Assembly: GCF_036365525.1 (NCBI RefSeq)
Contig: NC_090375.1
Span: 196,953,631 to 197,017,630, forward strand
DNA from: Heterodontus francisci
Taxonomy: Eukaryota
DNA: 64,000 nt
Reading direction: 5' to 3'
Part shown: positions 3,601-48,709 of the stretch, in pieces
Numbering within the stretch: position 1 is the stretch's first letter
Layout: each line of letters begins with the position of its first letter
Program-made: the position numbers and the translations under genes
Notes under the pieces: model-generated
Database searches by the model: none
What the model was told of the DNA's origin: nothing
The model's input: the letters and a program-made list of their open reading frames with translations, nothing else

Positions 3601-3745
3601 TAATGTTTCTAAAAGAATAGAATAAGCTTGCATTTCTATAGCAGCACTTTCGACCTCAGGATATCCCAAAGTGCTTCACAACTGCTCGAGAAATGTAAAT
3701 GTTTCTTTTTTTTTTCTTTCTAATTCAGCTGTTTCTCTTCCCCAG

Positions 3746-4775
3746 ATATACCACGCAGGACAAGCTTTCCGCCTGGGCCGTTACCCAATACACTGGCACC
3801 TTACGGGAGACCTGAGATATGAGTCCTACGTGCGAGGTTGTGCAATACACCAAACATTTAACAGGGCTGTGGCCATACATGGCACACACCGCCTCCTGGT
3901 GGAAGGCAATGTGGCTTATGACATCATGGGGGGAGCATTCTTCATCGAGGATGGCATTGAGCAGGGCAACGTCTTGCAGTATAACCTGGCAGTCATGGTG
4001 CGGCAGAGCACCAGCCTCCTCAATGATGACATCACCCCTGCCGCATTCTGGGTGACCAATCCGGCAAACACGGTCTGTCACAACGCTGCCGCAGGGGGGA
4101 CTCACTTTGGCTTCTGGTACCGGCTGTTCAAGCACCCCAGTGGACCCTCCCACACTCCCGGTGTCTGCCAGCGCACCGTGCCCCTGGGTGAGTTTCGCAA
4201 CAACACTGTGCACTCCCACGGCTGGTTCGGCCTGTGGATTTTCGAGGCGTACCACCCATTGAAAGGGGGACGGTGTAATTCCTGGAGCCCAGAACCTGCT
4301 CGCTTCGAGTCGCTCACCTCGTGGAACTGTAAGAAAGGGGCGGAGTGGGTGGATGGAGGAGCTCTTCAATTCCTTAACTTCCTGATGGTCAATAATGAAA
4401 ACGCCGGCATAGAAACCAAACTCATCCTGCGCTCCTACGTGAGAGGGTGGGGCGAGGCCCAGGGGGCTCTGATCGAGAACGCAACCATTGTGGGTCATGT
4501 AGAGGCACTTGGTCTCGGCGCCAACTATTGCACCACCAGAGGCATTGTATTACCCTTGGCTGAAGGGCTGACTCTATCATCTGTAACATTCATGAACTTT
4601 GACCGGCCAAGCTGCGCCGCCCTGGGGGTGACCAGCATCCAAGGTATGTGCTCAGACCGGTGCGGAGGCTGGAGCGTGAGATTCAGCGGGGTTCAGTACT
4701 TTGACGCTGCAAACAAGGCTGCCTTCCACTGGGAGCACGAGGTGGTCCTTCATGATCTCGACGGATCTCTTACAG
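3746..4775 (+). CDS. PKHD1L1: PKHD1L1 exon (1030 bp; beta-helix/PbH1 region)
   Basis: Acceptor ttctcttccccag|ATA, donor ACAG|gtgagg. Translates IYHAGQAFRLGRYPIHWH...HDLDGSLT inside ORF 3671..4828. Confidence 0.95.
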
Positions 4776-4989
4776 GTGAGGCGGACAGATTCGGGGGAGG
4801 AGGGCGGGGGGAGGGGGACAGGTGCTGATGTTGGGGCGTGACCTGGTCATAGAGTCTCTGTCCTGTTTGTATAGTGCCAGGGAGTTCCCCCAAGAATTCT
4901 GGGGTGGGGGGTGGTGGAGCTTTGGAATGACACGTTTCTACATTCACCCCCTCTATTGGTGACATTGGAAAGAGGCAGCACAGGTGGAA

Positions 4990-5460: not shown

Positions 5461-6261
5461 AGTCATCTACCAGACTTTGCTGCCTCTTCCACCTCTGTTC
5501 CCACAGCCTAGTGAATAGACTGGATGGGCTGAATGGCCTCCTTCTGTGCCATATTGACTCTATGACTGCTGGATGGTGGGATGCAGGACTCCCCACAACC
5601 TCATCCTGGTGCTCCTGAGGCAAGGCCATCTCCCAGGAAAAGGTCTAATTCATCCAGACCGAGCGATACTCCACTTCCACTGTGAATATCCTCCCTCCCA
5701 ACCTTTCCAGGTTGTTCCATACAGAGACAGCAGATCTTTCTCCTAAAGGTAGTCGATCCAGTGGGCAATTGATTGATTTTTGCTGGGAAACATTCTTGGG
5801 GGCCCTGTGTGCAGTCCATGCCGACGGTCAGTGGCTGTGTCATCTGTGGGCCTCTGAGATGGAGTGGTGGTGGTTGGGGGGTATGCCACAGGAGCTCAGG
5901 AATGGTTCGACCAGACACATCCAAAAGTCACGTGCAGGAACTGGGTGGAAACTCACTCATCCTCAGGATTACCAGACAGATCATCAGTGGAACAGAAACC
6001 TGGTGAATCCAGGGCATAAATATAACTCATTAATAAATCCAGTCTGGGAATTCAGGAGAAACTTCTTTACCCAGAGAGTGGTGAGAGTGTGGAACTCAGG
6101 AACACAGGGAGTAGTTGAGGTGAATAGTATAGGTACATTTCAGGGGAAACTGGACACGTTACTGGTTTACACCCGGGGAATTTTAGCCACAATGTGTAAA
6201 TAATTGAGATATTATGTACAATATCCAAAGTAAGGTTTTTAAGTAAAAGTGCCAAGGGCTC

Positions 6262-6820
6262 CACTGTCGAAGGGTCAGTGCTGAGAGAGTGCTGCACTGT
6301 CGGAGGGTCAGTATTGAGGGAGTGCTGCACTGTCGGAGGGTCAGTACTGAGGAAGTGCTGCACTGTCGGAGGGTCTGTACTGAGGGAGCGCTGCACTGTC
6401 GGAGGGTCAGTATTGAGGGAGCGCTGCACTGTCGGCGGGTCAGTACTGAGGGAGCGCTGCACTGTCGGCGGGTCAGTACTGAGGGAGCGCTGCACTGTCG
6501 GCGGGTCAGTACTGAGGGAGCGCTGCACTGTCGGAGGGTCAGTACTGAGGGAGCGCTGCACTGTCGGAAGGTCAGTACTGAGGGAGCATTGTCAGAAGTG
6601 CCATACTTCGGATGAGACATTAAATCGCGGACCCATCTACCTGTCGAGTGGACATAAAAGATGTAATGGCAGTGCTATTGAAAGAGCAGGGAGTTCTCCT
6701 ATCTGACATTCAACTCTCAACTGCCAACAAAAAAGAAGATTCTGTAATTATTCATCTCATTTATTGATTGTAGGATCTTACTACCTGTAACTGACCTGTT
6801 TTCACACACAAGGATAACTA
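6262..6820 (+). repeat. DeuSINE-like element with an internal 33-bp tandem expansion (~10 copies)
   Basis: Unit gctgcactgtcggagggtcagtactgagggagc, followed by gtgccatacttcggatgagacattaaatcgcggaccc, which resembles the Deu-domain core. Confidence 0.75.
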
Positions 6821-8151: not shown

Positions 8152-8398
8152 TGTTGCATGCTTGCTTCAAGAGTGCTGTCCCTTTAAGAATCCAGTATGC
8201 TAACTACCAGGATGCAGTCATGTTACTAGAAGCCATAGTCACTCTGCAACTGTAACACTCTATACAAAGGTTCTGTATATAGTTTGCTCTGCACTGTATA
8301 TACTAGTTTAGCTATTAATAAACCCTTTTGAGATCCAAGGAACTGTAATCCGGGTACCTCATTGTGTTGCTTAAGATAACACAAAGAATCTCATGATA
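8152..8398 (+). repeat. 5' LTR
   Basis: Starts tgttgcatg and ends ctcatgata (decayed from ...ataaca). AATAAA at 8317-8322. Manual alignment to the 3' LTR gives roughly 31 substitutions plus 2 indels. Confidence 0.92.
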
Positions 8399-8413
8399 TG
8401 GTGGCAGCGGTGG
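8399..8413 (+). promoter_or_regulatory. Primer-binding site (tRNA-Leu)
   Basis: TGGTGGCAGCGGTGG directly follows the LTR. It is the reverse complement of the vertebrate tRNA-Leu(AAG/TAG) 3' end ...CCACCGCTGCCA-CCA. Confidence 0.88.
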
Positions 8414-8559
8414 TGAAATGGCAAGCTATAACCTTGAAGACCACGGGCAAAACAGCAAACAAGTGAAGTAACTTTAAAGCAAGTACCTGAAAAGAGAATA
8501 AGTTCAAAAGAAATACTGGCCAAACAGTGGAAAGAAGAAAAAAGACTTACCCAGAGCAC

Positions 8560-9075
8560 AGAATCACAGAATTGTTACAGTGCAGAAGGAGGTCATTCGG
8601 CTCATCATGTCTGCACTGGCTCTCCGAAAGAGCAATTCCCTCAGTTCCATTCCCCCACCTTCTCCCCGTAACCCTGTACATTCTTCCTTTTCATGTAACA
8701 GTCTAATTCCCTTTTGAATGCTTCAATTGAACCTGCCTCCACCACGTTCTCAGGCAGCGCATTCCAGACCTTAACCACTCACTGCGTAAAACTATTTTTC
8801 CTCATGTTACTTTTGCTTCACTTACCAAATACTTTAAATCTGTGCCCTCTTCCTCTTGATCCTTTCATGAGTGGGAACAGTTTCTCTCTATCTCCTCTGT
8901 CCAGACCCCTCATCATTTCGAATACCTCTATCAAATCACCTCTCCGCCTTCGTTTCTCCAAGGAAAACAGTCCTAACTTCTCCAATCTATCTTCATAACT
9001 GAAATTCTTCATCCCTGGAACCATTCTCATGAATCTTTTCTGTACTCTCTCCAATGCCCTCACATCTTTCCTACA
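8560..9075 (-). mobile_element. CR1 3' fragment nested in the LTR element's leader
   Basis: ORF 8818..9078(-): KDVRALERVQKRF..SYEDRLEKLGLFSLEKRRRRGDLIEVF; the CR1 tail points left. Confidence 0.88.
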
Positions 9076-9419
9076 CACTGCAGAGTCTCCTTTGAAGCAG
9101 TCAAGTAGAAAAAAATTAAACCAGTCAAGTGTAAAGAAGATAAACGAACTCTAGCAAAAAAACAAAGGGTAAAGTCCTTGAACTGCCTATCAACCAGCTG
9201 TGTTAACATACAAGCTGAGTGTTGAAAACACTCCATCAAAACTGCTCGCTTAAAGCAAAGAGAATTTCTTCAAGGGGGAACAGAACAGAGTTGCTAGAAC
9301 AGTTTTTAAAGTATGTTTTCAACCACAAATAGAAAAATCATAATAAATAGAGTGCTGAAGACACACACAGAGCTGAACAAAGTTAAATATAGAGCAGAAT
9401 GCAAAACAACAGCAGAAAG

Positions 9420-10840
9420 ATGGATATAAAATCTCCCGGCATGATCTGGAAGGCCATTGATATCCTATATGAGTTCAAATTTTTTAAACAAAGAATGCAG
9501 TTATGCTTCACAGACCAAGCGGTTGTAGACCAGAGAAGCAGACTGTAAAAATACTGATAGCAGCTGGAAATGAGGGGTTACACAGAATCAATACCTCTGG
9601 CTTATCTGAAGAAGATCAGAAAGATCCCGCAAAGTTAAGGAAAGTGCTAGAAGATCAGCTTCGGGTAAGAGTGGATTTTAGAATTCATCGCCTGGCATTG
9701 ATGTCCTACGGGAAACAACCACAGTAATCAATAGATCAATTCATCTGTAGATGGCATAGTAATGGCAATGAATACGATTTTTCAGAAACTGAGCTGTCGG
9801 AGTGAATAATGGAGCTGGTGATTGTCTCAACACCTATTGAAGCGTTTCAAAAAGGCCTCTTGAGGAGAAAAGAAACGTTACAGCATTGCTGTGCTGCTAG
9901 AAGATGGCAGGAAATACTAAGCCATTGTAGCTGGACAACAGCATCTGCAAGCACTAGTTGCAGCCGACAGTATTGGCACGGTAACCAGGTCATAAAAAGC
10001 AAGCAAGCTGTATGCTAAATGTGATTTGTCCCACTCACCGCGAAGTTGTCCTGCATTTCCAGATCTGTGCCAGGCGAGTGCTGCAAAAGGACACTGGGAC
10101 CACCTACGCAAGAAAGCTAGTTCCAAAGTTGCAGCCAGAAATCACAATAGGACAACAAACAAACAGAAGACAGGCTCAACAACAGGCAACAGCAGCAAGG
10201 AGAGCACCAGAAACCTGTGTAAACACAAGCCGCTACACAAAGTCCACAGTGAAATAGACCTGAGACAAGACTCAGAGTGGAGTTATTTTCAGCCAGAAGA
10301 TGATCAGGCGTTTCACATTGTGAACCTGACACATTGTGTTGATGAAGTCAAACAGCTGGAAGCTTTTGTTACTATCAATATAATGTGCCCAAAGAAAGTT
10401 GGCAAACTTACACTCAGGACTAAGATTGACACAGGAGCTAGTGCAAATATCCTACCAGTCCGAGTCCTGAAGGATATGTACCGGGGTCATTGGAAATTAA
10501 TGATACAACCGACAACTGCAAAGTTAACTGCATAAAATGGGTCACCCATCCTTTGCAGTGGCATACTAACAATGCAATGCTACTATGGTAAGTCGGCATG
10601 GAAACCACAAATATTTTACCTGGTAGACACGAGTGGACCAGCAGTGGCAGGACTACCAGCATGTAAGGACCTCAACATTGTGACCATCCACGAGATCATC
10701 AAGGTACCCACTGCAGCAGAAAAGATCAAGGGTACCTTTGAGTCAGTCCAGGACTTACAATGGGTTCAATGCCATAGGAAATTTCAAAGGCAATACTGTA
10801 CTGAATGTCAGAGAGGATGCAGTCCCTGTGTCCAGCCCCT
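9420..10840 (+). pseudogene. Gypsy gag-protease (frameshifted, with stops)
   Basis: Gag-like MDIKSPGMIWK..FKFFKQRMQLCF..; knuckles CAKCDLSHSPRSCPAF..LCQASAAKGHW; protease KIDTGASANILP (10428); post-protease linker IGNFKGNTVLNVREDAVP(V)QP ends about 10840. Confidence 0.88.
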
Positions 10841-11540
10841 GAAGTCTGAAATTGAGTCACAGTTCTTCCAGCATCCCGGTGGTTCTGGTTTGGACAGTAT
10901 CAGCCCCTTCTCAGAGATGCCACAAGAGAACGAAGATCCGAATTTGGATGATGGAAGTTCTTTGTCAACAGGCAGTGTTTCTTCACACTTCCAGTAACTC
11001 ACAAGAAGAGATTGATGTTGTAACCATTGAGAATCAAAGTGGGGAGCATTGCCAAGGGGAAATCTCCAAGGACCAGAAACTGCTTGCAGACTCTGGCCAG
11101 CATCAAATGGTGCAGTCTGGAAACCCAGCAACAGAACAACTGTGCCCCACCCTCACTTCTGCTGTCCAGAGAACCGCCAGCACCAAGATCAGCCAGAACG
11201 GACAGAGGCCAAGACGTCCATGTGGCCAAGTGCTCCTCTGCCAACAAGTCCTCGACCTTGAGCCCCAGGCCTTCAGACGCAGAGAATGGGGAGAGTCGAA
11301 GGACACACAATGTCCTGAAGAGGCAGAGGAGGAATGAGTTGAAGCTTTGTCTATTGGCTGTTCGAGATGAGGTGCCGGAACTCTCCAAGTGTAGCAAGGC
11401 CGCAAAAGTGATCATCCTGAGAAAAGCAACAAGAGTATATTAGCAGGCTGGAGGCAGAGCAACAAGGACTGGATGCAGAGAGGGAGAAACTTCAGAAAAA
11501 ACAGTAACAGCTTATATGCAAATTCTCCGAGATGCAAGAG
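10840..11540 (+). pseudogene. Myc-family fragment (box IIIb, box IV, bHLH-LZ) inside the LTR element; disabled by frameshifts and a stop
   Basis: SNSQEEIDVVTIE (about 10993-11031); IKWCSLETQQQNNCAPPS..EPPAPRSAR; SPRPSDAENGESRRTHNVLKRQRRNELKLCLLAVRDEVPELSKCSKAAKVIILRKAT[+1 at ~11432]EYISRLEAEQQGLDAEREKLQKKQ*QLICKF. Paralogue not assignable by eye; 5' boundary approximate. Confidence 0.93.
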
Positions 11541-11775
11541 ACACTGCTCAAACAGATAAGGGTGAAATCCATGTCCCCAGGAGGTTATACCAGAACAAGA
11601 TCTGGAAGAATTGTCAAACCACCAAAACAAATTATTGACTCTTAGGCTTTTGCACTCGTAATTTTCACAATCCCTATCCTCGTACTTGTAAATTTTATAA
11701 CCTCTATCCCTGTCGAACTAATTTCTGTTATCCAATTTTATGTGTTTTTGCTGATAACATATGAGACTTATCTTT

Positions 11776-11789
11776 GGAAAGAAAGGGGA
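11776..11789 (+). promoter_or_regulatory. Polypurine tract
   Basis: ggaaagaaagggga lies directly before the 3' LTR start tgttg. Confidence 0.88.
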
Positions 11790-12046
11790 TGTTGTATGAT
11801 CGCTTCAAGAATGTTGTCCCTTTAAGAACTCAGTATGCTAGTGAGCTAATTACCAGGATGTAGTCTTATGACTAGAAGCCATAGTCACTCTGCAACTGTA
11901 ACACCCTACCCAATGGTTCTGTATATAGTTTGCTCTGTACTGTATATGCTAATTTGGCGGTTAATAAACCCTTCTGAGATCATCAAGGAACTGGAATCCA
12001 TATACCTCATTGTGTTGCTTAAGATAACATGAAGAATCTCATAACA
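11790..12046 (+). repeat. 3' LTR
   Basis: tgttgtatg...ctcataaca (TG...CA ends); AATAAA at 11963-11968; colinear with the 5' LTR. Confidence 0.92.
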
Positions 12047-12358: not shown

Positions 12359-12510
12359 GGATCAGCATCGTCCCATTCCTCGACAAACAGCTCAACCATA
12401 AACCTGGTTGGATGGCTCTTATTCCCAACAATGAGACCTTTAATTGGCATTTCGAGGATGTGGATTATATCAGCAACATCTCGTATACAGCCACATTCTA
12501 TCACTTTAAG
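12359..12510 (+). CDS. PKHD1L1: PKHD1L1 exon
   Basis: gacacag|GG...TTTAAG|gtactt. GISIVPFLDKQLNHKPGWMALIP...TATFYHFK. Confidence 0.9.
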
Positions 12511-20659: not shown

Positions 20660-23600
20660 AGGAATATTGAACAGTATGGAGAGTGAGCAGCAGAGTAAGA
20701 TTAGACTGGGTGGGATATTAAATAGTACAGGGAGTGAGCAGGAAAGTGGGATTAGACTGGGTGGGATATTAAATGTTACAGGGAGTGAGCAGGAGAGTGG
20801 GATTAGACTGGGTGGGATATTAAATGTTACAGGGAGTGAGCAGGAGAGTGGGATTAGACTGGGTGGAATATGGAAGGGTGCAGGGAGTGAGCAGGGCAAT
20901 GAGATTTGACTGGGTGGGATATTAAGGGGTGCAGGGAGTGAGCAGGGCAGTGAGATTTGACTGGGTGGGATATTAAATGTTACAGGGAGTGAGCAGGAGA
21001 GTGGGATATTAAAGGTGCAGGAAGTGAACAGAAGAGTGGGATTAGACTGGGTGGGATATTAAAGGGTACAGGGAGTGAGCAGGAGAGTGGGATATTAAAG
21101 GTGCAGGAAGTGAACAGAAGAGTGGGATTAGACTGGGTGGGATATTAAAGGGTACAGGGAGTGAGCAGGAGAGTGGGATATTAAAGGTGCAGGAAGTGAA
21201 CAGAAGAGTAGGATTAGACTGGCTGAGATATGTACAGGGAGTGAGCAGGAGAGTGGGATTAGACTGGGTGGGATATTAAATGTTACAGGGAGTGAGCAGG
21301 AAAGTGGGATTAGACTGGGTAGGATATTAAATGTTACAGGGAGTGAGCAGGAAAGTGGGATTCTGGGTGGGATATTAAATGTTACAGGGAGTGAGCAGGA
21401 AAGTGGGATTAGACTGCGTGGGATATTAAATGTTACAGGGAGTGAGCAGGAAAGTGGGATTAGACTGGGTGGGATATTAAATGTTACAGGGAGTGAGCAG
21501 GAAAGTGGGATTCTGGGTGGGATATTAAATGTTACAGGGAGTGAGCAGGAAAGTGGGATTAGACTGGGTGGGATATTAAATGTTACAGTGAGTGAGCAGG
21601 AGAGTGAGATTAGACTGGGTGGGATATTAAATGTTACAGGGAGTGAGCAGGAGAGTGGGATTAGACTGGGTGGAATATGGAAGGGTGCAGGGAGTGAGCA
21701 GGGCAGTGAGATTTGACTGGGTGGGATATTAAAGGATATGGGAAGCAAGAGGGAGAGTAGGATTAGACTGGCTGAGATATGTACAGGAGTGGGATTAGAC
21801 TGGGTGGGATATTAAATGGTACAGGGAGTGAGCAGGAGAGTGAGATTAGACTGGGTGGGATATTAAATGGTACTGGGAGTGAGCAGGAGAGTGGGATTAG
21901 ACTGGGTGGGATATTAAATGGTACAGGGAGTGAGCAGGAGTGTGGGATTAGACTGGGTGGGGTATTAAAAGGTACAGCGAGTGAGCAGGAGAGTGATATT
22001 AGACTGGGTGGGATATTAAATGGTACAGGGAGTGAGTGGGATTAGACTGGGTGGGATATTAAATGGTACAGGGAGTGAGCAGGAGTGTGGGATTAGACTG
22101 GGTGGGGTATTAAAAGGTACAGCGAGTGAGCAGGAGAGTGATATTAGACTGGGTGGGATATTAAATGGTACAGGGAGTGAGTGGGATTAGACTGGGTGGG
22201 ATATTAAATGGTACAGGGAGTGAGCAGGAGTGTGGGATTAGACTGGGTGGGATATTAAAAGGTACTGGGAGTGAGCAGGAGTGTGGGATTAGACTGGGTG
22301 GGATATTAAATGGTACTGGGAGTGAGCAGGAGAGTGGGATTAGACTGGGTGGGATATTAAAAGGTACTGGGAGTGAGCAGGAGTGTGGGATTAGACTGGG
22401 TGGGGTATTAAATGGTACTGGGAGTGAGCAGGAGAGTGAGATTAGACTGGGTGGGATATTAAATGGTACTGGGAGTGAGCAGGAGTGTGGGATTAGACTG
22501 GGTGGGATATTAAATGGTACTGGGAGTGAGCAGGAGAGTGAGATTAGACTGGGTGGGATATTAAATGGTACTGGGAGTGAGCAGGAGTGTGGGATTAGAC
22601 TGGGTGGGATATTAAATGGTACTGGGAGTGAGCAGGAGTGTGGGATTAGACTGGGTGGGATATTAAATGGTACAGGGAGTGAGCAGGAGAGTGAGATTAG
22701 ACTGGGTGGAATATTAAATGGTACTGGGAGTGAGCAGGAGAGTGGGATTAGACTGGGTGGGATATTAAATGGTACTGGGAGTGAGCAGGAGTGTGGGATT
22801 AGACTGGGTGGGATATTAAATGGTACTGGGAGTGAGCAGGAGAGTGGGATTAGACTGGGTGGGATATTAAATGGTACAGGGAGTGAGCAGGAGAGTGAGA
22901 TTAGACTGGGTGGAATATTAAATGGTACTGGGAGTGAGCAGGAGAGTGGGATTAGACTGGGTGGGATATTAAATGGTACTGGGAGTGAGCAGGAGTGTGG
23001 GATTAGACTGGGTGGGATATTAAATGGTACTGGGAGTGAGCAGGAGAGTGGGATTAGACTGGGTGGGATATTAAATGGTACTGGGAGTGAGCAGGAGAGT
23101 GGGATTAGACTGGGTGGGATATTAAATGGTACTGGGAGTGAGCAGGAGAGTGGGATTAGACTGGGTGGGATATTAAATGGTACTGGGAGTGAGCAGGAGA
23201 GTGGGATTAGACTGGGTGGGATATTAAATGGTACAGGGAGTGAGCAGGAGAGTGGGATTAGACTGGGTGGGATATTAAATGGTACAGCGAGTGAGCAGGA
23301 GAGTGGGATTAGACTGGGTGGGATATTAAATGGTACAGGGAGTGAGCAGGAGTGTGGGATTAGACTGGGTGGGATATTAAATGGTACAGCGAGTGAGCGG
23401 GAGAGTGGGATTAGACTGGGTGGGATATTAAATGGTACTGGGAGTGAGCAGGAGTGTGGGATTAGACTGGGTGGGATATTAAATGGTACAGGGAGTGAGC
23501 AGGAGAGTGGGATTAGACTGGGTGGGATATTAAATGGTACAGGGACTGAGCAGGAGTGTGGGATTAGACTGGGTGGGATATTAAATGGTACTGGGAGTGA

Positions 23601-26600
23601 GCAGGAGAGTGGGATTAGACTGGGTGGGATATTAAATGGTACAGGGAGTGAGCAGGAGTGTGGGATTAGACTGGGTGGGATATTAAATGGTACTGGGAGT
23701 GAGCAGGAGTGTGGGATTAGACTGGGTGGGATATTAAATGGTACAGGGAGTGAGTAGGAGAGTGGGATTAGACTGGGTGGGATATTAAATGGTACAGGGA
23801 CTGAGCAGGAGTGTGAGATTAGACTGGGTGGGGTATTAAATGGTACAGCGAGTGAGCAGGAGAGTGGGATTAGACTGGGTGGGATATTAAATGGTACAGG
23901 GAGTGAGCAGGAGTGTGGGATTAGACTGGGTGGGATATTAAATGGTACAGGGAGTGAGCAGGAGAGTGGGATTAGACTGGGTGGGATATTAAATGGTACA
24001 GGGACTGAGCAGGAGTGTGAGATTAGACTGGGTGGGGTATTAAATGGTACAGGGAGTGAGCAGGAGAGTGGGATTAGACTGGGTGGGATATTAAATGGTA
24101 CTGGGAGTGAGCAGGAGAGTGGGATTAGACTGGGTGGGATATTAAATGGTACTGGGAGTGAGCAGGAGAGTGGGATTAGACTGGGTGGGATATTAAATGG
24201 TACTGGGAGTGAGCAGGAGAGTGGGATTAGACTGGGTGGGATATTAAAGGGTACAGGGAGTGAGCAGGAGAGTGGGATTAGACTGGGTGGGATATTAAAT
24301 GGTACTGGGAGTGAGCAGGAGAGTGGGATTAGACTGGGTGGGATATTAAATGGTACAGGGACTGAGCAGGAGTGTGAGATTAGACTGGGTGGGGTATTAA
24401 ATGGTACTGGGAGTGAGCAGGAGAGTGGGATTAGACTGGGTGGGATATTAAATGGTACTGGGAGTGAGCAGGAGAGTGGGATTAGACTGGGTGGGATATT
24501 AAATGGTACAGGGAGTGAGCAGGAGAGTGGGATTAGACTGGGTGGGATATTAAATGGTACAGGGAATGAGCAGGAGAGTGGGATTAGACTGGGTGGGATA
24601 TTAAATGGTACAGGGAGTGAGCAGGAGTGTGGGATTAGACTGGGTGGGATATTAAATGGTACAGGGAGTGAGCAGGAGAGTGGGATTAGACTGGGTGGGA
24701 TATTAAATGGTACAGGGAGTGAGCAGGAGAGTGAGATTAGACTGGGTGGGATATTAAATGGTACAGGGAGTGAGCAGGAGAGTGGGATTAGACTGGGTGG
24801 GATATTAAATGGTACTGGGAGTGAGCAGGAGAGTGAGATTAGACTGGGTGGGATATTAAAAGGTACAGCGAGTGAGCAGGAGAGTGGGATTAGACTGGGT
24901 GGGATATTAAATGGTACAGGGAGTGAGCAGGAGAGTGGGATTAGATCTGGGTGGGATATTAAATGGTACAGGGAGTGAGCAGGAGAGTGGGATTAGATCT
25001 GGGTGGGATATTAAATGGTACAGGGAGTGAGCAGGAGAGTGGGATTAGACTGGGTGGGATATTAAATGGTACAGGGAGTGAGCAGGAGAGTGGGATTAGA
25101 CTGGGTGGGATATTAAATGGTACTGGGAGTGAGCAGGAGTGTGGGATTAGACTGGGTGGGATATTAAATGGTACAGGGAGTGAGCAGGAGTGTGGGATTA
25201 GACTGGGTGGGATATTAAATGGTACTGGGAGTGAGCAGGAGTGTGGGATTAGACTGGGTGGGATATTAAATGGTACAGGGAGTGAGCAGGAGAGTGGGAT
25301 TAGACTGGGTGGGATATTAAATGGTACAGGGAGTGAGTGGGATTAGACTGGGTGGGATATGGAAGGGTACAGGGAGTGAGCAGGAGAGTGGGATTAGACT
25401 GGGTGGGATATTAAATGGTACTGGGAGTGAGCAGGAGTGTGGGATTAGACTGGGTGGGATATTAAATGGTACAGGGAGTGAGCAGGAGTGTGGGATTAGA
25501 CTGGGTGGGATATTAAATGGTACAGGGAGTGAGCAGGAGTGTGGGATTAGACTGGGTGGGATATTAAATGGTACTGGGAGTGAGCAGGAGTGTGGGATTA
25601 GACTGGGTGGGATATTAAATGGTACAGGGAGTGAGCAGGAGAGTGGGATTAGACTGGGTGGGATATGGAAGGGTACAGGGAGTGAGCAGGAGAGTGGGAT
25701 TAGACTGGGTGGGATATGGAAGGGTACAGGGAGTGAGCAGGAGAGTGGGATTAGACTGGGTGGGATATGGAAGGGTACAGGGAGTGAGCAGGAGAGTGGG
25801 ATTAGACAGGTTGGAATATGGAAGGGTACAGGGAATGAATAGGAGAGTGGGATTGGATTGGGTGGGATATTAAATGGTACAGGGAGTGAGCAGGAGAGTG
25901 GGATTAGACTGGGTGGGATATTAAATGGTACAGGGAATGAGCAGGAGAGTGGGATTAGACTGGGTGGGATATTAAAGGTTCAGGGAGTGAGCGGGAGTGT
26001 GAGATTAGACTGGGTGGGATATTAATGGTACTGGGATGTGAGCAGGAGTGTGGGATTAGACTGGGTGGGATATGGAAGGGTACAGGGAGTGAATAGGAGA
26101 GTGGGATTGGATTGGGTGGGATATTAAAGGTTCAGGGAGTGAGCAGGAGAGTGGGATTAGACTGGGTGGGATATTAAATGGTACTGGGAGTGAGCAGGAG
26201 TGTGGGATTAGACTGGGTGGGATATGGAAGGGTACAGGGAGTGAATAGGAGAGTGGGATTGGATTGGGTGGATATTAAAGGTTCAGGGAGTGAGCAGGAG
26301 AGTGAGATTAGACTGGGTGGGATATTAAATGGTACAGGGAGTGAGCAGGAGAGTGAGATTAGACTGGGTGGGATATTAAATGGTACAGGGAGTGAGCAGG
26401 AGAGTGAGATTAGACTGGGTGGGATATTAAAGGTTCAGGGAGTGAGCAGGAGAGTGAGATTAGACTGGGTGGGATATTAAATGGTACAGGGAGTGAGCAG
26501 GAGAGTGGGATTAGACTGGGTGGGATATTAAATGGTACAGGGAGTGGGCAGGAGAGTGAGATTAGACTGGGTGGGATATTAAATGGTACAGGGAGTGAGC

Positions 26601-27720
26601 AGGAGAGTGGGATTAGACTGGGTGGGATATGGAAGGGTACAGGGAGTGAATAGGAGAGTGGGATTGGATTGGGTGGGATATTAAAGGTTCAGGGAGTGAG
26701 CAGGAGAGTGAGATTAGACTGGGTGGGATATTAAATGGTACAGGGAGTGGGCAGGAGAGTGAGATTAGACTGGGTGGGATATTAAATGGTACTGGGAGTG
26801 AGCAGGAGTGTGGGATTAGACTGGGTGGGATATTAAATGGTACTGGGAGTGAGCAGGAGAGTGAGATTAGACTGGGTGGGATATTAAATGGTACTGGGAG
26901 TGAGCAGGAGAGTGGGATTAGACTGGGTGGGATATTAAATTGTACTGGGAGTGAGCAGGAGAGTGGGATTAGACTGGGTGGGATATTAAATGGTACTGGG
27001 AGTGAGCAGGAGAGTGGGATTAGACTGGGTGGGATATTAAATGGTACTGGGAGTGAGCAGGAGAGTGGGATTAGACTGGGTGGGATATTAAATGGTACTG
27101 GGAGTGAGCAGGAGAGTGGGATTAGACTGGGTGGGATATTAAATGGTACTGGGAGTGAGCAGGAGAGTGGGATTAGACTGGGTGGGATATTAAATGGTAC
27201 TGGGAGTGAGCAGGAGTGTGGGATTAGACTGGGTGGGATATGGAAGGGTACAGGGAGTGAGCAGGAGAGTGGGATTAGACAGGTTGGAATATGGAAGGGT
27301 ACAGGGAGTGAATAGGAGAGTGGGATTGGACTGGGTGGGATATTAAATGGTACAGGGACTGAGCAGGAGTGTGGGATTAGACTGGGTGGGATATTAAAGG
27401 TTCAGGGAATGAGCAGGAAAGTGGGATTTGACTGGGTTGAATATGAATGGGTATTGGGAGTGAGCAGGAAAGTGGGATTAGACTAGGTGGGATATTAAAG
27501 GGTATTGAGAGTGAGCAGGAGAGTGGGATTAGACAGGTTGGAATATGGAAGGGTACAGGGAGTGAGCAGGAGAGTGGGATTAGACAGGTTGGAATATGGA
27601 AGGGTACAGGGAGTGAATAGGAGAGTGGGATTGGACTGGTGGAATATGAAAGGGTGCAGGTGAGTGGGATTAGACTGGGTTGTATATGAAAGGGTGCAGG
27701 GAGTGAGCAGGAGAGTATGG
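20660..27720. repeat. ~7 kb tandem array of a 51-bp unit (~135-140 copies)
   Basis: Consensus gattagactgggtgggatattaaatggtacagggagtgagcaggagagtgg; gives the spurious 17-aa repeat SGIRLGGILNGTGSEQE. Confidence 0.97.
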
Positions 27721-35017: not shown

Positions 35018-36226
35018 ACAGGGATCACAACACAGTGTGAGGCAGTGGACAGGGATCACAACACAGTGTGAAGCAGTGGACAGGGATCACAACACAGTGT
35101 GAGGCAGTGGACAGGGATCACAACACAGTGTGAAGCAGTGGACAGGGATCACAACACAGTGTGAAGCAGTGGACAGGGATCACAACACAGTGTGAAGCAG
35201 TGGACAGGGATCACAACACAGTGTGAGGCAGTGGACAGGGATCACAACACCGTGTGACACAGTGGACACGGATCACAACACCGTGTGACGCAGTGGACAG
35301 GGATCACAACACAGTGTGACGCAGTGGACAGGGATCACAACACAGTGTGACGCAGTGGACAGGGATCACAACACAGTGTGACGCAGTGGACAGGGATCAC
35401 AACACAGTGTGACGCAGTGGACAGGGATCACAACACAGTGTGACGCAGTGGACAGGGATCACAACACAGTGTGACGCAGTGGACAGGGATCACAACACAG
35501 TGTGACGCAGTGGACAGGGATCACAACACAGTGTGACGCAGTGGACAGGGATCACAACACAGTGTGACGCAGTGGACAGGGATCACAACACAGTGTGACG
35601 CAGTGGACAGGGATCACAACACAGTGTGACGCAGTGGACAGGGATCACAACACAGTGTGACGCAGCGGACAGGGATCACAACACAGTGTGAAGCAGCGGA
35701 CAGGGATCACAACACAGTGTGAAGCAGCGGACAGGGATCAGAACACAGTGTGAAGCAGCGGACAGGGATCAGAACACAGTGTGAAGCAGCGGACAGGGAT
35801 CAGAACACAGTGTGAAGCAGCGGACAGGGATCACAACACAGTGTGAGGCAGTGGACAGGGATCACAACACAGTGTGACGCAGTGGACATGGATCACAACA
35901 CCGTGTGAAGCAGTGGACAGGGATCACAACACAGTGTGAAGCAGTGGACAGGGATCACAACACAGTGTGAGGCAGTGGACAGGGATCACAACACAGTGTG
36001 AAGCAGTGGACAGGGATCACAACACAGTGTGAGGCAGTGGACAGGGATCACAACACAGTGTGAGGCAGTGGACAGGGATCACAACACAGTGTGAGGCAGT
36101 GGACAGGGATCACAACACAGTGTGAGGCAGTGGACAGGGATCACAACACAGTGTGAGGCAGTAGACAGGGATCACAACACAGTGTGAAGCAGTGGACAGG
36201 GATCACAACACAGTGTGATGCAGTGG
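35018..36226. repeat. 31-bp minisatellite (~39 copies)
   Basis: Unit gggatcacaacacagtgtga(g/a/c)gcagtggaca; period 31 (35021 to 35052). Confidence 0.96.
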
Positions 36227-36786
36227 AAAGATTCTCTGGCTGATTAACACTCTGACTCACTGTGACATGAACACTCCTTCCATGGTCGGTAGCCATCTTT
36301 CCCCCAGCTGACGGAGGGTTCGCCATATATGGCAGGAGGGTTTTATGGGCTCCCGCAATCTATATGATGAAGTGGGGCTGCCCACGGACAGGAGGATCCC
36401 ACTACCATTCAGTGGTAGAGCTGTGGTCTCCATTTGCCAGGGCTGTCCAGAGTGGTGTTTGAACACAGGGTCTTCTGTCTGATGGTGTTGGCTGGGGCTG
36501 TTGGCTACCACTCAGTCAGAGACTCGTTACACTCCATAGTTTATAAGCTGTTATTTCCGAGCTTTTTATTTTTAAGATAAAAGAAAGAGTTTGGGGGTCA
36601 TTTTCAATAATAGTAGGGGCGTGAAATGGGATGGAATATCAGAGGGGGTGGGCGAGGGGTGGGGGGTTGCAGGATGTAGCTGATGATCAATCTGCTACCT
36701 CCAGAGTCAGTATTGACCACTTTTGATATCATAAAAAGTGTATCGGGGCATTGTAACTGAGATTCACTGTAAATAACTCTCTCCAG

Positions 36787-43635: not shown

Positions 43636-44654
43636 GTAAGGACCAGTTTCAAACAAAGGACGAATGCAAGTGTGGTTTCTCCGAGTAGAATCATAGAACA
43701 GTACAGCACAGAAGGAGGCCATTCAGTCCATTGAATCAGCATTGGTTCTTTTGAAGGCGTTAGTCTCACTCCCCTGCTCTGTCGCCCATATCCCTGCAAT
43801 TTCTTCCCCTGCAAATATTTATCCAATTCCCTTTTGAAAGTTACTATTGAATCTGTGTCCATCAACAACATCAAGCAGTACATTCCAGATTCGAACCACT
43901 CGTTGCATAAAAGGTTTACTTCATGTCCCCTCTGGTTCTTTTGCCAATCACCTTAAAGCTATGCCCTCTAGTTATCAACTCTTCAGCCATTGGAAATGTT
44001 TCTTTCCCCACCTTTCTCTCCTCTTCCACCCCCTTTAAAATTGGACCATTTAGCTTGTGTTGTCTTCCCTAATCCTTCCTATCAAAATGTATCACCTCAC
44101 ACTTTCCTGAGTTGAATTTTATTTGCCATGTGTCTGTTCAGTCCATCAACCTGTCTATGCCCCCTTGAAGGTTATTACTGCCCTCCTCAGTGTTTGCTCC
44201 ACTGCCAAGTTCGTGTCATCTGCAGATTTCAAAACTGTGCCCTGTCCCCCCATGTCTAAGTCAGTAATGTATACCAAAAACATCAGTAGTCCTTCGAGAA
44301 CACCACTATAAACCTCCCTCCAGTCCTGTTTTCTATCCCTTAATGTATCCCTATTGCTACTGTCCCGACTGTCCATTGCTAATGAGAGGGAAGCAGAGAA
44401 GAAAATGGATGACAGATATAATGGACTGGATGCAGTTGACTTATGCAGAATGTGTAAAGGCCAGCACAGGACAGACAGAGGTGGAGATCCGTGACAGTCA
44501 ACCTTCAGGGAAGAAGATGAAACCAATGAACAAACAAACTGTCCATATCCGATGGGGTTTCAATTTTGCCTAATATGTTGTACTTTATCAAATTCCTGTA
44601 CTGCCTTCATCCCCCCTCTCTGTTACCTCATCAAAAAACTTAAATCAAGTTTTT

Positions 44655-47600
44655 AGAACATTACAGCGCAGTACGGGCCCTTCGGCCCTCGATGTTGCGC
44701 CGACCTGTGAAACCATCTGACCATTTTCATCCATATGTCTATCCAATGACCACTTAAATGCCCTTAAAGTTGGCGAGTCTACTACTGTTGCAGGCAGGGC
44801 GTTCCACGCCCCTACTACTCTTTGAGTAACGAAACTACCTCTGACATCTGTCCTATATCTATCACCCCTCAACCTAAAGCTATGTCCCCTCGTGTTTGCC
44901 ATCACCATCCGAGGAAAAAGACTCTCACTATCCACCCTATCTAACCCTCTGATTATCTTATATGTCTCTATTAAGTCACCTCTCCTCCTCCTTCTCTCCA
45001 ACGAAAACAACCTCAAGTCCCTCAGCCTTTCCTCGTAAGACCTTCCCTCCATACCAGGCAACATCCTAGTAAATCTCCTCTGCACCCTTTCCAAAGCTTC
45101 CACATCCTTCCTATCATGCGGTGACCAGAACTGCACGCAATACTCCAGGTGCGGCCGCACCAGAGTTTTGTACAGCTGCAGCATGACCTCGTGGCTCCGA
45201 AACTCGATCCCCCTACTAATAAAAGCTAACACACCATATGCCTTCTTAACAGCCCTATTAACCTGGGTGGCAACTTTCAGGGATTTATGTACCTGGACAC
45301 CAAGATCTCTCTGTTCATCTACACTACCAAGAATCTTCCCATTAGCCCAGTACTCTGCATTCCTGTTACTCCTTCCAAAGTGAATCACCTCACACTTTTC
45401 CGCATTAAACTCCATTTGCCATCTCTCAGCCCATCTCTGCAGCCTATCTATGTCCCTCTGTAACCTACAACATCCTTCGGCACTATCCACAACTCCACCG
45501 ACCTTCGTGTCATCCGCAAATTTACTAACCCACCCTTCTACACCCTCATCCAGGTCATTTATAAAAATGACAAACAGCAGTTGTCCCAAAACAGATCCTT
45601 GCGGTACACCACTAGTAACTAAACTCCAGGATGAACATTTGCCATCAACCACCACCCTCTGTCTTCTTTCAGCTAGCCAATTTCTGATCCAAAGCACTAA
45701 ATCACCTTCAATCCCATACTTCCGTATTTTCTGCAATAGCCTTACTGAAATCCATATACACCACATCCACGGCTTTACCCTCATCTACCTGTTTGGTCAC
45801 CTTCTCGAAAAACTCAATAAGGTTTGTGAGGCACGACCTACCCTTCACAAAACCGTGCTGACTATCGCTAATGAACTTATTCTTTTCAAGATGATTATAA
45901 ATCTATCTCTTATAACCTTTTCCAACATTTTACCCACAACCGAAGTAAGGCTCACAGGTCTATAATTACCAGGGCTGTCTCTACTCCCCTTCTTGAACAA
46001 GGGGGCAACATTTGCTATCCTCCAGTCTTCCGGCACTGATCAAGGACAAAGGCTCTGCAATCTCCTCCCTGGCTTCCCAGAGAATCCTAGGATAAATCCC
46101 ATCTGGCCCAGGGGACTTATCTATTTTCACACTTTCCAAAATTGCTAACACCTCCTCCTTGTGAACCTCAATCCCATCTAGCCTAGTAGTCTGTATCTCA
46201 GTATTCTCCTCGACAACATTTTCTTTCTCTACTGTAAATACTGACGCAAAATATTCATTTAACGCTTCCTCTATCTCCTCTGATTCCACACACAACTTCC
46301 CACTGCTATCCTTGATTGGCTCTAATCTAACTCTAGTCATTCTTTTATTCCTGATATACCTATAGAAAGCCTTAGGGTTTTCCCTGATCCTATCCGCCAA
46401 TGACTTCTCGTGTCCTCTCCTCGCTCTTCTAAGCTCTCCCTTTAGATCATTCCTGTCTAGCTTGTAACTCTCAAGTGCCCTAACTGAGCCTTCACGTCTC
46501 ATCCTAACATAAGCTGCCTTCTTCCTCTTGACAAGCGCTTCAACTTCTTTAGTAAACCACGGCTCCCTCGCTCGACAACTTCCTCCCTGCCTGACAGGTA
46601 CATACTTATCAAGGACACGCAGTAGCTGCTCCTTGAATAAGCTCCACATTTCGATTGTGCCCATCCCCTGCAGTTTCCTTCCCCATCCTACGCATCCTAA
46701 ATCTTGCCTAATCGCATCATAATTTCCTTTCCCTCAGCTATAATTCTTGCCCTGCGGTATATACCTGTCCCTGCCCATCGCTAATGTAAACCTAACCGAA
46801 TTGTGATCACAAAGTGCTCACCTACATCTAAATCTAACACCTGGCCGGGTTCATTACCCAGTACCAAATCCAATGCGGCATCGCCCCTGGTTGGCCTGTC
46901 TACATACTGTGTCAGAAAACCCTCCTGCACACACTGGACAAAAACTGACCCATCTAAAGTACTCGAACTATAGTATTTCTAGTCAATATTTGGAAAGTTA
47001 AAGTCCCCCATAACAACTACCCTGTTACTCTCGCCCCTGTCGAGAATTATCTTCGCTATCTTTTCCTCTACATCTCTGGAACTATTCGGAGGTCTATAGA
47101 ATACTCCCAACAGGGTGACCTCTCCTCTCCTGTTTCTAACCTCGGCCCATACTACCTCAGTAGACGAGTCCTCAAATGTCCTTTCTGCCGCCGTAATACC
47201 CTCCTTGATTAACAATGCCACACCCCCCCCTCTTTTACCATCATCTCTGTTCTTACTGAAACATCTAAATCCCGGAACCTGCAACATCCATTCCTGTCCC
47301 TGCTCCACCCATGTCTCCGAAATTGCCACAACATCGAGATCCCAGGTACCAACCCATGCTGCAAGCTCACCCACCTTATTCCGGATGCTCCTGGCGTTGA
47401 AGTAGACACACTTTAAACCAAGTTCTTGCTTGCCAGTGCCCTCTTGCATCCTTGTAACCTTATCCCTGACCTCACTACTCTCAACATCCTGTACACTGGA
47501 ACTACAATTTAGGTTCCCATCCCCCTGCTGAATTAGTTTAAACCCCCCCGAAGAGCACTAGCAAATCTCCCCCCCAGGATATTGGTACCCCTCTGGTTCA

Positions 47601-48709
47601 GGTGAAGACCATCCTGTTTGTAGAGGTCCCACCTACCCCAGAAAGAGCCCCAATTATCCAGGAAACCAAAACCCTCCCTCCTACACCATCCCTGCAGCCA
47701 CGTGTTCAACTCCTCTCTCTCCCTATTCCTCGCTTCGCTAGCACGTGGCACGGGCAACAACCCAGAGATAACAACTCTGTTTGTTCTTGCTCTAAGCTTC
47801 CACCCTAGCTCCCTGAATTTCTGCCTTAAATCCCCATCTCTCTTCCTACCTATGTCCTTGGTGCCTATGTGGACCACGACTTGGGGCTGCTCCCCCTCCC
47901 CCTTAAGGATCCCAAAAACACGATCCGAGACATCACGAACCCTGGCACCTGGGAGGCAACACGCCAACCGTGAGTCTGTCTCGTTCCCACAGAACCTCCT
48001 ATCTGTTCCCCTAACTATGGAGTCCCCAATGACTAATGCTCTGCTCCTCTTCCCCCTTCCCTTCTGAGCAACAGGGACAGATTCTGTGCCAGAGACCTGT
48101 ACCCCATTGCTTACCCCTGGTAAGTCGTCCCCCCCAACAGTATCCAAAACGGTATACCTGTTGTTGAGGGAAACGGCCACAGGGGATCCCTGCACTGCCT
48201 GCTGGTTCCCTCTCCTTCCCCTGACGGTAACCCATCTACCTACTTCTTTTACCTGAGGTGTGACTACCTCCCTATAACTCCTCTCAATAACACCCTCCGT
48301 CTCCCGAATGATCCGAAGTTCATCCAGCTCCAGCTCCCTAACGCAGTTCTGGAGGAGCTGGAGTTGGGTGCACTTCCCGCAGATGCAGTCAGCAGGGACA
48401 CTCTTGGCGACCCTTACCTCCCACATTCTGCAGGAGGAACATTCAACTGCCTTAACTTCCATTCCCACTATTCTAAATTCCCAACAAATCTACTGAAAAC
48501 CAAAAAAAAAAAGTAAAAACTTGTTAGCTTAGCAATCCGACGGACTGAACTTTTTTTTTGGTTAGAGGAGGAGGATGGGTGGGAGACAGCACGCGAGTAG
48601 TGTTTTAGGTAAAGCAACCGCCCAAATATGTAACCTCACTTACCCAGCAGTCCCGCGTGCGCTCCGCCTATACACGAGAAATGGCTTCCGATTTCTTGGC
48701 GCGCTTTTC
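44655..48709 (-). mobile_element. Near full-length, relatively young CR1 LINE
   Basis: 5' UTR at about 48470-48709 (cut by the gap), ORF1, ORF2 in long open segments (47449-46979 endonuclease; 46664-45981; 45784-44645 RT with FADDTK), 3' tail at about 44655. Confidence 0.95.
47533..48468 (-). CDS. CR1 ORF1p (N-terminal Cys motif, coiled coil, SGNH/GDSL esterase domain), 311 aa, open
   Basis: CSSCRMWE...CGKC, LVIGDSIVR, CLPGARVRDV, HIGTKD, DGLHLN. Confidence 0.9.
   Translation of the reverse strand: MGMEVKAVECSSCRMWEVRVAKSVPADCICGKCTQLQLLQNCVRELELDELRIIRETEGVIERSYREVVTPQVKEVGRWVTVRGRRGNQQAVQGSPVAVSLNNRYTVLDTVGGDDLPGVSNGVQVSGTESVPVAQKGRGKRSRALVIGDSIVRGTDRRFCGNETDSRLACCLPGARVRDVSDRVFGILKGEGEQPQVVVHIGTKDIGRKRDGDLRQKFRELGWKLRARTNRVVISGLLPVPRASEARNREREELNTWLQGWCRREGFGFLDNWGSFWGRWDLYKQDGLHLNQRGTNILGGRFASALRGGLN

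Follow-up and report, generated by a model that had tools for sequence, protein, structure and literature searches.

The element at positions 8152..12046 of the window (the whole stretch of 64,000 nucleotides of the Heterodontus francisci genome analyzed here) belongs, as a single dead copy, to an extensive Ty3/Gypsy family that is non-autonomous and carries host mych sequence. In the reading that we favor as a whole, and hold to be probable on balance, a spliced and truncated mych transcript replaced pol in frame, likely through capture by template switching, and has likely traveled since then as a passenger on helper elements.

Structure of the window copy

An earlier note made from the sequence had described a Gypsy element with an LTR, a tRNA-Leu primer-binding site (PBS), gag, protease, a Myc segment, the motif TRSGRIVKPP and a polypurine tract (PPT), and all of these parts were located between 8152 and 12046, from LTR to LTR:

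8152..8398, + strand: 5' LTR with TG... start and decayed terminal CA; 87% identity to the 3' LTR
8399..8413, + strand: PBS, complementary to the tRNA-Leu 3' end
8552..9074, - strand: 3' fragment of a presumably CR1-like LINE, a later insertion in the leader; absent from sister copies
9420..10330, + strand: gag, interrupted by stops and frameshifts
about 10020-10110, + strand: two degenerate zinc knuckles inside gag; the knuckle of the parent matches Pfam zf-CCHC_2 at E=2e-4, short of the cut-off
10340..10694, + strand: aspartic protease; DTGA at 10428-10439, motif read in sequence
10695..10821, + strand: parent protease-RT linker, to the 5' switch point
10815..10821, + strand: 5' junction microhomology GGATGCA, in frame; common to parent pol and host mych
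10815..11002, + strand: 3' segment of the second mych coding exon, captured; 84% identity over 179 nt
11003..11524, + strand: captured mych exon 3, to about residue 358; 85% identity over 534 nt
11318..11320, + strand: basic-region position matching mych E290, the Glu that contacts the E-box; Lys in the window copy
11519..11524, + strand: 3' junction microhomology CAAATT, in frame; further 8-nt match in register 5 nt on
11519..11645, + strand: integrase C-terminal tail, then stop; TRSGRIVKPP at 11595-11624
11776..11789, + strand: PPT
11790..12046, + strand: 3' LTR, TG...CA; 87% identity to the 5' LTR

The hallmarks of Ty3/Gypsy elements, namely two LTRs of the form TG...CA, a PBS and a PPT, are thus present in the family, and the LTR pair of the window copy (87% identity) has a K of 0.14. 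The complement of the PBS is the 3' end of host-genome tRNA-Leu genes (5/6 loci examined are tRNA-Leu). The protease call rests on the DTGA motif, a Pfam search having given no match. The LINE fragment in the leader (~520 nt, about 8552-9074), which we take to be CR1-like from its peptide, likewise found no match when that peptide was searched against Pfam. The integrase tail carries a shared deletion of ~325 nt that places the copy in class B of the nested deletion series A, B, C and S, in which S is the short form. Within the Myc segment, matches to Myc in PDB (E=9e-14) and to Pfam HLH (E=1e-6) supply the similarity that the earlier reading called for. As that reading also held, the copy is disabled, by stops and frameshifts in gag and by several frameshifts and one stop in the Myc part. 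It has no target-site duplication (TSD; flanks CCTGA/AAAGG), whereas many sister copies have one.

Capture of a spliced mych transcript

The cargo consists of ~710 nt of spliced host mRNA, which stands in for reverse transcriptase (RT), RNase H and most of integrase, a pol stretch of about 2.2-2.6 kb by comparison with the parent. Its assignment to the Myc family stands, and the donor is placed as mych, not MYC or MYCN: DNA identity is 84-85% to mych vs. 68% over 215 nt to MYC, and in a tree taken without any MYCL row the element rows are sister to the host genome's own mych with a support of 98/96. The host-derived part had been taken to start at about 10990; it starts at 10815 and also covers the downstream part of mych exon 2. 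This start corresponds to about mych residue 121, and QDCMW sits at residues 100-104, so that MBI/MBII lie outside the captured piece. The exon 3 piece contains the EEIDVV box, box IV, an NLS-like motif and the bHLH-LZ.

The 1.7-kb mych intron is absent, and exon 2 is joined directly to exon 3. The join is exact in 61/65 copies and in 27/39 further copies (88/104 in total); the remaining copies carry small indels at this point, and an intron-sized insert was found in none of them. Microhomology amounts to 7 nt at the 5' switch point and 6 nt at the 3' switch point, both in frame, with a chance per random position pair of 0.0006 and 0.002, respectively. Neither poly(A) nor a TSD was found around the mych part. 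The characteristics of LTR-mediated retrocopies are therefore found together, i.e., intron loss, replacement of part of the ORF, microhomology at both ends and further transposition with a partner.

At the family level there is one continuous gag-pro-myc frame, as the earlier note had proposed (28/38 myc and 19/20 parent copies used, those with large insertions or deletions left out). The frame is preserved at the capture junction, at the short-form junction and across a 129-nt deletion (2 copies), as against 25/76 other deletions of >=4 nt, a contrast that speaks for a frame that was kept. Frame keeping is nevertheless imperfect, which counts against selection on the frame: two frameshifting deletions are each common to 2 copies, 1-nt slips in base runs are each common to 4-9 copies, and tail class C departs from the integrase frame past the zipper.

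Autonomous parent and helper backbones

An autonomous parent was found whose LTR, tRNA-Leu PBS, gag, protease and tail are the same as those of the myc-bearing form, which implies that the latter moved in trans, as had been supposed. A parent copy shows the Pfam order RVT_1, RT_RNaseH, Integrase_H2C2, rve, and comparison with it bears out the claim that a Myc-family fragment replaces RT, RNase H and integrase. At about 5.4 kb this Gypsy element, which we assume to belong to the Mag clade, has no room for env; <200 nt separate the integrase-tail stop from the 3' LTR. Its RT region is 58-63% identical to its best matches, K02A2.6-like Ty3/Gypsy elements of echinoderms, which like the parent have a single gag-pol frame in the order PR-RT-RH-IN; unlike the shark family, these elements are autonomous, and none of their parts is a host gene. 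Between the gag-pro of long forms and that of the parent, no fixed difference was found (33/78, 19/30 and 16/20 copies used, those with large insertions or deletions left out). The short form rides a second helper backbone, that of a sister helper subfamily.

Copy number and relative age

The many copies with the same junctions that the earlier note had anticipated exist: about 190 loci of the long form were seen (estimate 300-530), together with 479 junction matches of the short form (estimate 700-1,300), and both forms together are estimated at 1,000-1,800 germ-line copies. The join between protease linker and Myc is present in 40/40 scored loci, and a short-read contig spans it in a diverged copy. 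Among two-LTR copies of two samples, a 5-bp TSD is exact in 5/18 and 1/10 and present with <=1 mismatch in 12/18 and 3/10, counts for which element ends were set automatically, some of them misplaced; these TSDs indicate independent insertions.

LTR divergence (K) is 0.133 in the long form (n=18), 0.147 in a second long-form sample (n=10), 0.128 in the short form (n=12) and 0.134 in the parent (n=7), so that by this measure the myc-bearing forms and the parent are of the same age. The available rate, 7e-10 per generation from pedigrees (PMC10587355), is not convertible to a per-year rate for the shark lineage, and dating is therefore relative only.

When loci were picked by gag, 11/40 carried myc. 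Myc-less internal deletions among 36 fetched gag loci had private breakpoints in every case, and in the 40 gag-picked loci the Myc-bearing forms were the only amplified non-autonomous derivative seen, an observation that counts against a passenger. Linkage between diagnostic sites of the Myc part is weak and fits recombination, and no subfamily tree of this part is therefore given. Rows L045 and L062 were left out of the analysis as near-duplicates. Frequency classes among 66 copies were set aside as swamped by recurrent mutation.

The short form was also found under a second species label. Another organism (C) has many Myc-like and protease pieces, and among its contigs listed none bridges a junction. 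None of the sequencing runs is registered as RNA; those guessed to be so contain diverged pieces, which may be DNA. At least five database proteins named 'N-myc-like' or 'myc-like' are copies of this retrotransposon. A protein search with the junction-spanning stretch, restricted to lengths of 146-468, found chimeric proteins under no more than one species label; since broken repeats seldom receive an annotation, this argues weakly for absence elsewhere.

Residues and selection in the Myc part

The bHLH-LZ is present in every subfamily and also moved to the second backbone; its retention counts against a passenger, and a founder effect could explain it. The Glu that contacts the E-box is kept in 31/98 long copies and 4/47 short copies. 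Along the series A, B, C and S, H286 is kept in 25/34, 18/23, 8/19 and 3/26 copies and E290 in 17/35, 9/22, 1/19 and 1/25, whereas R294, L297, L304 and K325 are each kept at about 90%. The Glu change stands at 71% at a non-CpG site, vs. a median of 5%. In the short form, the WDR5-binding box is deleted, the NLS-like Lys248 is kept in 1/27 copies and the zipper Leu354 in 1/22.

Common lineage variants of the Myc part are 2:10 synonymous to nonsynonymous in the long form and 4:9 in the short form, with a neutral share of 0.27-0.31, and of 15 residue changes at lineage level, 4 hit conserved positions (4.1 expected). The gag-pro of short forms shows 51:46 (p=4e-10), a signal that may come from recombination with helpers; the Myc part and gag-pro were compared by Fisher test (p=0.21), and these neutrality tests have little power. 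At the lineage level the Myc part has changed in a way that looks neutral, and tests of low power showed no purifying selection of the kind (dN/dS<1) that the earlier note had proposed to test for. Apparent shared stops at Arg codons proved to be CpG decay.

Proposed history and alternative interpretations

In the history that we favor, mych mRNA would have been co-packaged in a particle, where RT would have jumped onto it and back. The resulting chimera would have retained the full set of cis signals and a gag-protease of its own, borrowing RT and integrase; it would later have been shortened by nested deletions, and its cargo would have recombined onto the sister helper subfamily. What likely maintained the frame is that an open stretch reaching close to the 3' LTR would shield the RNA from decay and allow the element its own Gag, independently of any need for Myc function. 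All sampled copies would afterwards have decayed neutrally.

It is conceivable, though we are doubtful, that the mych cargo instead made the family win, a host Myc-family sequence serving as a weapon against host control, passed between helper subfamilies and out-multiplying the helper there. Such a weapon could act at either of two levels. An unlikely version places it in the RNA, as silencing camouflage: small RNAs against the cargo would also hit host mych, and the loss of pol would remove target sequence, with better escape than plain deletion derivatives. This idea has been described for plants (PMC13317346), and in a moth, piRNAs made from a retrocopy target the gene from which it came (PMC9674220). 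It would fit neutral protein change with the cargo kept in all subfamilies, the hand-over of the cargo to a second backbone and the absence of shared myc-less deletions; however, the LTRs and gag are still there as targets, and camouflage alone leaves the in-frame junctions unexplained.

Selection on the protein, which the residue pattern might suggest, is in our view quite improbable. Here a bHLH-LZ that lacks the transactivation domain and no longer contacts the E-box would be a Max-binding dominant-negative decoy that relieves germ-line repression. Max/Mga complexes repress germ-line genes and retroelements. The stepwise loss of H286 and E290, the retention of R294, L297, L304 and K325 and the frequent Glu change at a non-CpG site are in line with such a decoy, given that E-box binding is specified by His/Glu/Arg (PMC10437117) and that the Myc bHLH-LZ alone can be dominant negative, as in Omomyc (PMC7226237). 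Yet conserved positions changed at the neutral rate, the short form also loses Lys248 and Leu354, and the choice of His and Glu is post hoc.

A general account of acutely transforming retroviruses is available (PMC13297096). In those of the MC29 type, a spliced cellular myc is fused in frame behind gag, replication genes are lost and a helper is needed. The shark family resembles MC29 gag-myc in all these respects, and it differs from such viruses in not being a retrovirus (it lacks env), and by its germ-line spread, its mych donor, the absence of a transactivation domain, the loss of the DNA-contact Glu in most copies and the absence of any sign of protein selection. The analogy, which the earlier note had drawn, does not carry over to function: an oncogenic gag-myc fusion driving proliferation of the carrier cell would explain the in-frame, helper-dependent replacement of pol, but we consider it very remote. 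It is contradicted by the missing transactivation domain, MBI/MBII lying outside the capture (MBII recruits TRRAP; PMC7226237), and is further weakened by the deleted WDR5-binding box of the short form, the loss of Glu290 in most copies, purifying selection that low-power tests did not detect and a parent without env. A processed pseudogene that landed in a dead element and a chimeric assembly, both named as alternatives by the earlier note and in keeping with the missing TSD of the window copy, are refuted by junctions common to hundreds of dispersed loci, by pol being replaced rather than interrupted, by a mych part without poly(A) or TSD and by short-read contigs that bridge the junctions.

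Relation to known captures and implications

Host mRNA capture by LTR retrotransposons is already known, and the shark case is unusual in scale and cargo. In the LTR-mediated retroposition described for animals (Tan et al., 2016; PMC5131818), partial mRNAs likewise replace internal ORFs. The switch points there show microhomology (median 6 bp), neither poly(A) nor a TSD flanks the retrocopy, the fusion is often in frame, and further non-autonomous rounds follow. Of nine fly retrocopies, for which 18 insertion sites were mapped, only two had more than one site, whereas the shark family has hundreds to >1,000 copies in nested subfamilies; its cargo, moreover, was transferred to a second helper subfamily and belongs to the Myc family ('oncogene' appears 0 times in the main text of PMC5131818). 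Maize Bs1 and human FAM8A1 in HERV-K also have host gene fragments replacing pol in an LTR element (PMC13317346, PMC5131818). As described there, Bs1 is a plant element with three donors and FAM8A1/HERV-K a single retroviral case; the shark family, by contrast, is a vertebrate Gypsy with one donor and far more amplified.

A literature search, outside of which lay most subscription journals, supplements and Repbase/Dfam, found no paper in which myc or mych is described as part of a Gypsy element, or in sharks. The oncogene retrocopy tables of one preprint (bioRxiv 10.64898/2026.06.26.734816) could bear on novelty; 'shark' occurs 0 times in its main text and 'myc' 0 times in its search listing.

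Animal captures have so far mostly been of single or few copies, whereas here two helper backbones and nested subfamilies are involved, providing a large fossil record for asking whether captured cargo helps an element. The family also exposes an annotation pitfall, retrotransposon copies having been entered in databases as myc-like proteins. Finally, it records the fate of a proto-oncogene relative whose transduction took place in the germ line and not in a tumor; here the functions of activation and DNA binding are missing or have been lost.

Structure and size of the family

The element had been described in the earlier note as an old, disabled Gypsy copy made up of LTRs around a tRNA-Leu PBS, gag, protease (DTGA), Myc-like segment, integrase-tail motif and PPT, and all of these parts were recovered in the window (contig C5 of the source assembly, G000):

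8152-8398, 5' LTR, 87% identical to the 3' LTR (K 0.14)
11790-12046, 3' LTR, 87% identical to the 5' LTR (K 0.14)

The PBS is complementary to a tRNA-Leu of the same genome, and gag, protease, Myc segment, integrase tail and PPT lie between the LTRs. The Myc segment matches Myc in the PDB (E=9e-14) as well as Pfam HLH. The copy is broken along its whole length and lacks a TSD; its leader holds a later-inserted LINE fragment (~520 nt), presumably CR1-like.

The same chimera occurs at 40/40 scored loci, 38 of them with a downstream LTR within the fetched stretch, which rules out a single processed pseudogene or a chimeric assembly. The exact junction motif of the long form (3' part of mych exon 2 plus exon 3) was found 65 times (control, 0) and the parent motif 450 times. 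Counting copies with the same junctions, as had been proposed, gave a union of 193 long-form loci on 39 contigs (most HMM matches in this union were not fetched, and 15/15 of those fetched were mych-like), and capture-recapture puts the long form at ~270-530 copies. Additionally, five database entries (P0241-P0245) annotated as N-myc-like or myc-like are copies of this element, all lacking the basic-region Glu.

Several other features were observed in the window. A host gene exon encoding a CEMIP beta-helix domain lies at 3626-4825 (+) (E=5e-56), another possible exon lies near 12360-12510, and the peptide downstream of the element may resemble PKHD1L1; the element probably sits in sense orientation within a host gene intron. 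A LINE remnant that includes RT and an ORF1 of the GDSL-esterase type occupies 44648-48489 (-), and long minisatellites (periods 51, 31 and 33) occupy 21173-27716, 35018-36227, 52868-53648 and 6258-6587, the 51-mer array creating spurious long open frames. Elsewhere in the assembly, contig C34 (18.73-19.00 Mb) carries a tandem array of >80 tRNA-Leu-type 3' ends at ~3,050-bp spacing, with tRNA-Ile also in both units examined.

Donor and parent of the chimera

A Myc_N search of the assembly (118 matches from 119/1624 candidates scored) returned three host genes, MYC, MYCN and mych, and 112 further matches; no MYCL locus was among the scored candidates. The host gene on contig C16 is identical to a horn shark (Heterodontus francisci) protein entry labelled mych. 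Window positions 10815-10989 align at 84% with the terminal part of its coding exon 2, and 10999-11524 at 85% with its exon 3, the 1.7-kb intron between them being missing, whereas MYC reaches just 68% over 215 nt. Thus, the proposed Myc-family origin stands, with mych rather than MYC as donor. The suggested phylogeny, a protein tree that includes no MYCL row, groups element rows with their own genome's mych (support 98/96), separate from the mych of other sharks. The exon 2/exon 3 join is precise in 61/65 and 27/39 copies, the remainder having small indels there. At 13 sites distinguishing host mych from other sharks, the prevailing residue among the copies is that of the host at six, that of the outgroup at five (by a narrow majority at one) and neither at two, a mixture that places the capture part-way along this shark lineage's own branch.

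The autonomous parent envisaged in the earlier note was found. Among 30 loci fetched by the protease-linker, 11 run into Myc, 17 directly into RT and 2 are rearranged. Twenty parent-type loci have gag and protease in common with the window copy, most of them LTR, PBS and tail too; a parent copy carries RT, RNase H and integrase. The parent's closest named relatives are K02A2.6-like Gypsy elements, presumably of the Mag clade. The best named matches of the parent RT (L123:3779-4819) are echinoderm (58-61%), the first named fish matches listed reaching 52-56%; the parent may have a horizontal origin.

At the 5' switch point, parent and host mych share GGATGCA, and at the 3' switch point CAAATT plus 8 nt in register; random position pairs share at least 7 and at least 6 letters with chances of 0.0006 and 0.002. 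Microhomology-guided template switching at LTR retrocopies is described in PMC5131818, and the window junctions match a switch that would have occurred between parent RNA and mych mRNA. The continuous gag-pro-myc frame, proposed for testing in the earlier note, was assessed by counting stops per codon column over natural copies (28/38 myc copies, 19/20 parents): a single phase is open across gag and protease in both, and the junction codon is in the same phase. The family belongs to the Ty3/Gypsy group and to the LTR-mediated retrocopies, and its structure, origin and spread in trans are very nearly certain. No description of it was found in a search of mainly open-access main texts and abstracts.

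A second helper and the history of subfamilies

In public-run contigs of organisms A and B, a second type of joint takes the protease straight into Myc exon 3 (153 and 102 nt on its two sides in B). Elements with this joint, the short form, have neither the exon-2 part nor the EEIDVV box. The short-form junction motif occurs 479 times at ≤1 mismatch (91 exact; control, 0), all 30 fetched loci run on into Myc, and small recapture counts give an estimate of 735-1,280 copies. In gag-pro, 81 columns (44 synonymous) separate short from long forms, whereas none separates long forms from the first parent. Of 30 loci picked by short-form gag-pro, 5 carry RT together with the short form's diagnostic letters; there is thus a second helper subfamily, onto which recombination likely transferred the cargo. 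Three long-form loci (L186, L202, L206) show gag-pro intermediate between both helpers, and in L285 a further junction, formed independently on the second backbone, is also in frame. Short-form copies L212-L241 carry the host letter at 5 columns where most long forms differ, which may mean that this haplotype is the older one or that host mRNA supplied a second patch.

The classes defined by tail deletions are nested: the full tail (3 copies), A, B (to which the window copy belongs) and C, from which the short form derives. The LTRs have diverged by 0.133 (n=18) and 0.147 (n=10) in long forms, 0.128 (n=12) in short forms and 0.134 (n=7) in parents, which reads as one broad, old burst. A 5-bp TSD (≤1 mismatch) flanks 12/18 and 3/10 copies. 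Stops or frameshifts interrupt Myc in 98/100 near-complete long copies, and the changes since insertion are close to neutral (ratio 0.92).

Role of the captured mych

The captured stretch runs from about residue 121, past the MBII motif (100-104), to about 358, just short of the stop, and thus holds no transactivation domain. According to PMC7226237, MBII recruits TRRAP and MBIIIb binds WDR5; PMC10437117 attributes E-box specificity to basic-region His, Glu and Arg. Glu290 persists in 31/98 long and 4/47 short copies (classes A, B, C and S: 17/35, 9/22, 1/19, 1/25) and His286 in 25/34, 18/23, 8/19 and 3/26, respectively; Arg294 and the helix residues checked are retained near 90%. The change at Glu290, a non-CpG site, reaches 71% against a median of 5% and therefore goes back to replicating lineages. 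Lys248, in an NLS-like motif, and the zipper residue Leu354 have been lost as well in the short form. Lineage-level synonymous:nonsynonymous changes in Myc are 2:10 in long and 4:9 in short forms (expected synonymous share, 0.27-0.31), with 4/15 at conserved positions (4.1 expected), and look neutral overall. Short-form gag-pro is clearly constrained (51:46, p=4e-10), although a direct comparison between it and Myc falls short of significance (p=0.21).

The cargo might have served as camouflage, which has a plant precedent in PMC13317346; we consider this unlikely. Action as a Max decoy is about as unlikely. Retroelements and germ-line genes are repressed by Max/Mga complexes, and such a decoy would relieve this. 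MC29 is an acutely transforming retrovirus, and the family resembles such viruses in their transduction step but fails their defining tests; with the transactivation domain not captured and Glu290 mostly lost, the analogy to gag-myc viruses falls, and a v-myc-like oncogene is highly improbable.

The frame runs on across the capture and short-form junctions, across another junction seen once and across a deletion of 129 nt, as against 25/76 other deletions that are in frame. Its preservation is imperfect: two deletions that shift the frame recur in 2 copies apiece, slips of 1 nt are found in 4-9 copies, and past the zipper class C is no longer in the integrase frame. Myc was present at 11 of 40 gag-picked loci, and no two of the myc-less deletions among them share breakpoints; the bHLH-LZ segment is retained in every subfamily. 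We favor, as somewhat the more probable reading, that mych is a passenger with a preserved frame, which would be kept for a reason of RNA decay or of Gag acting in cis.
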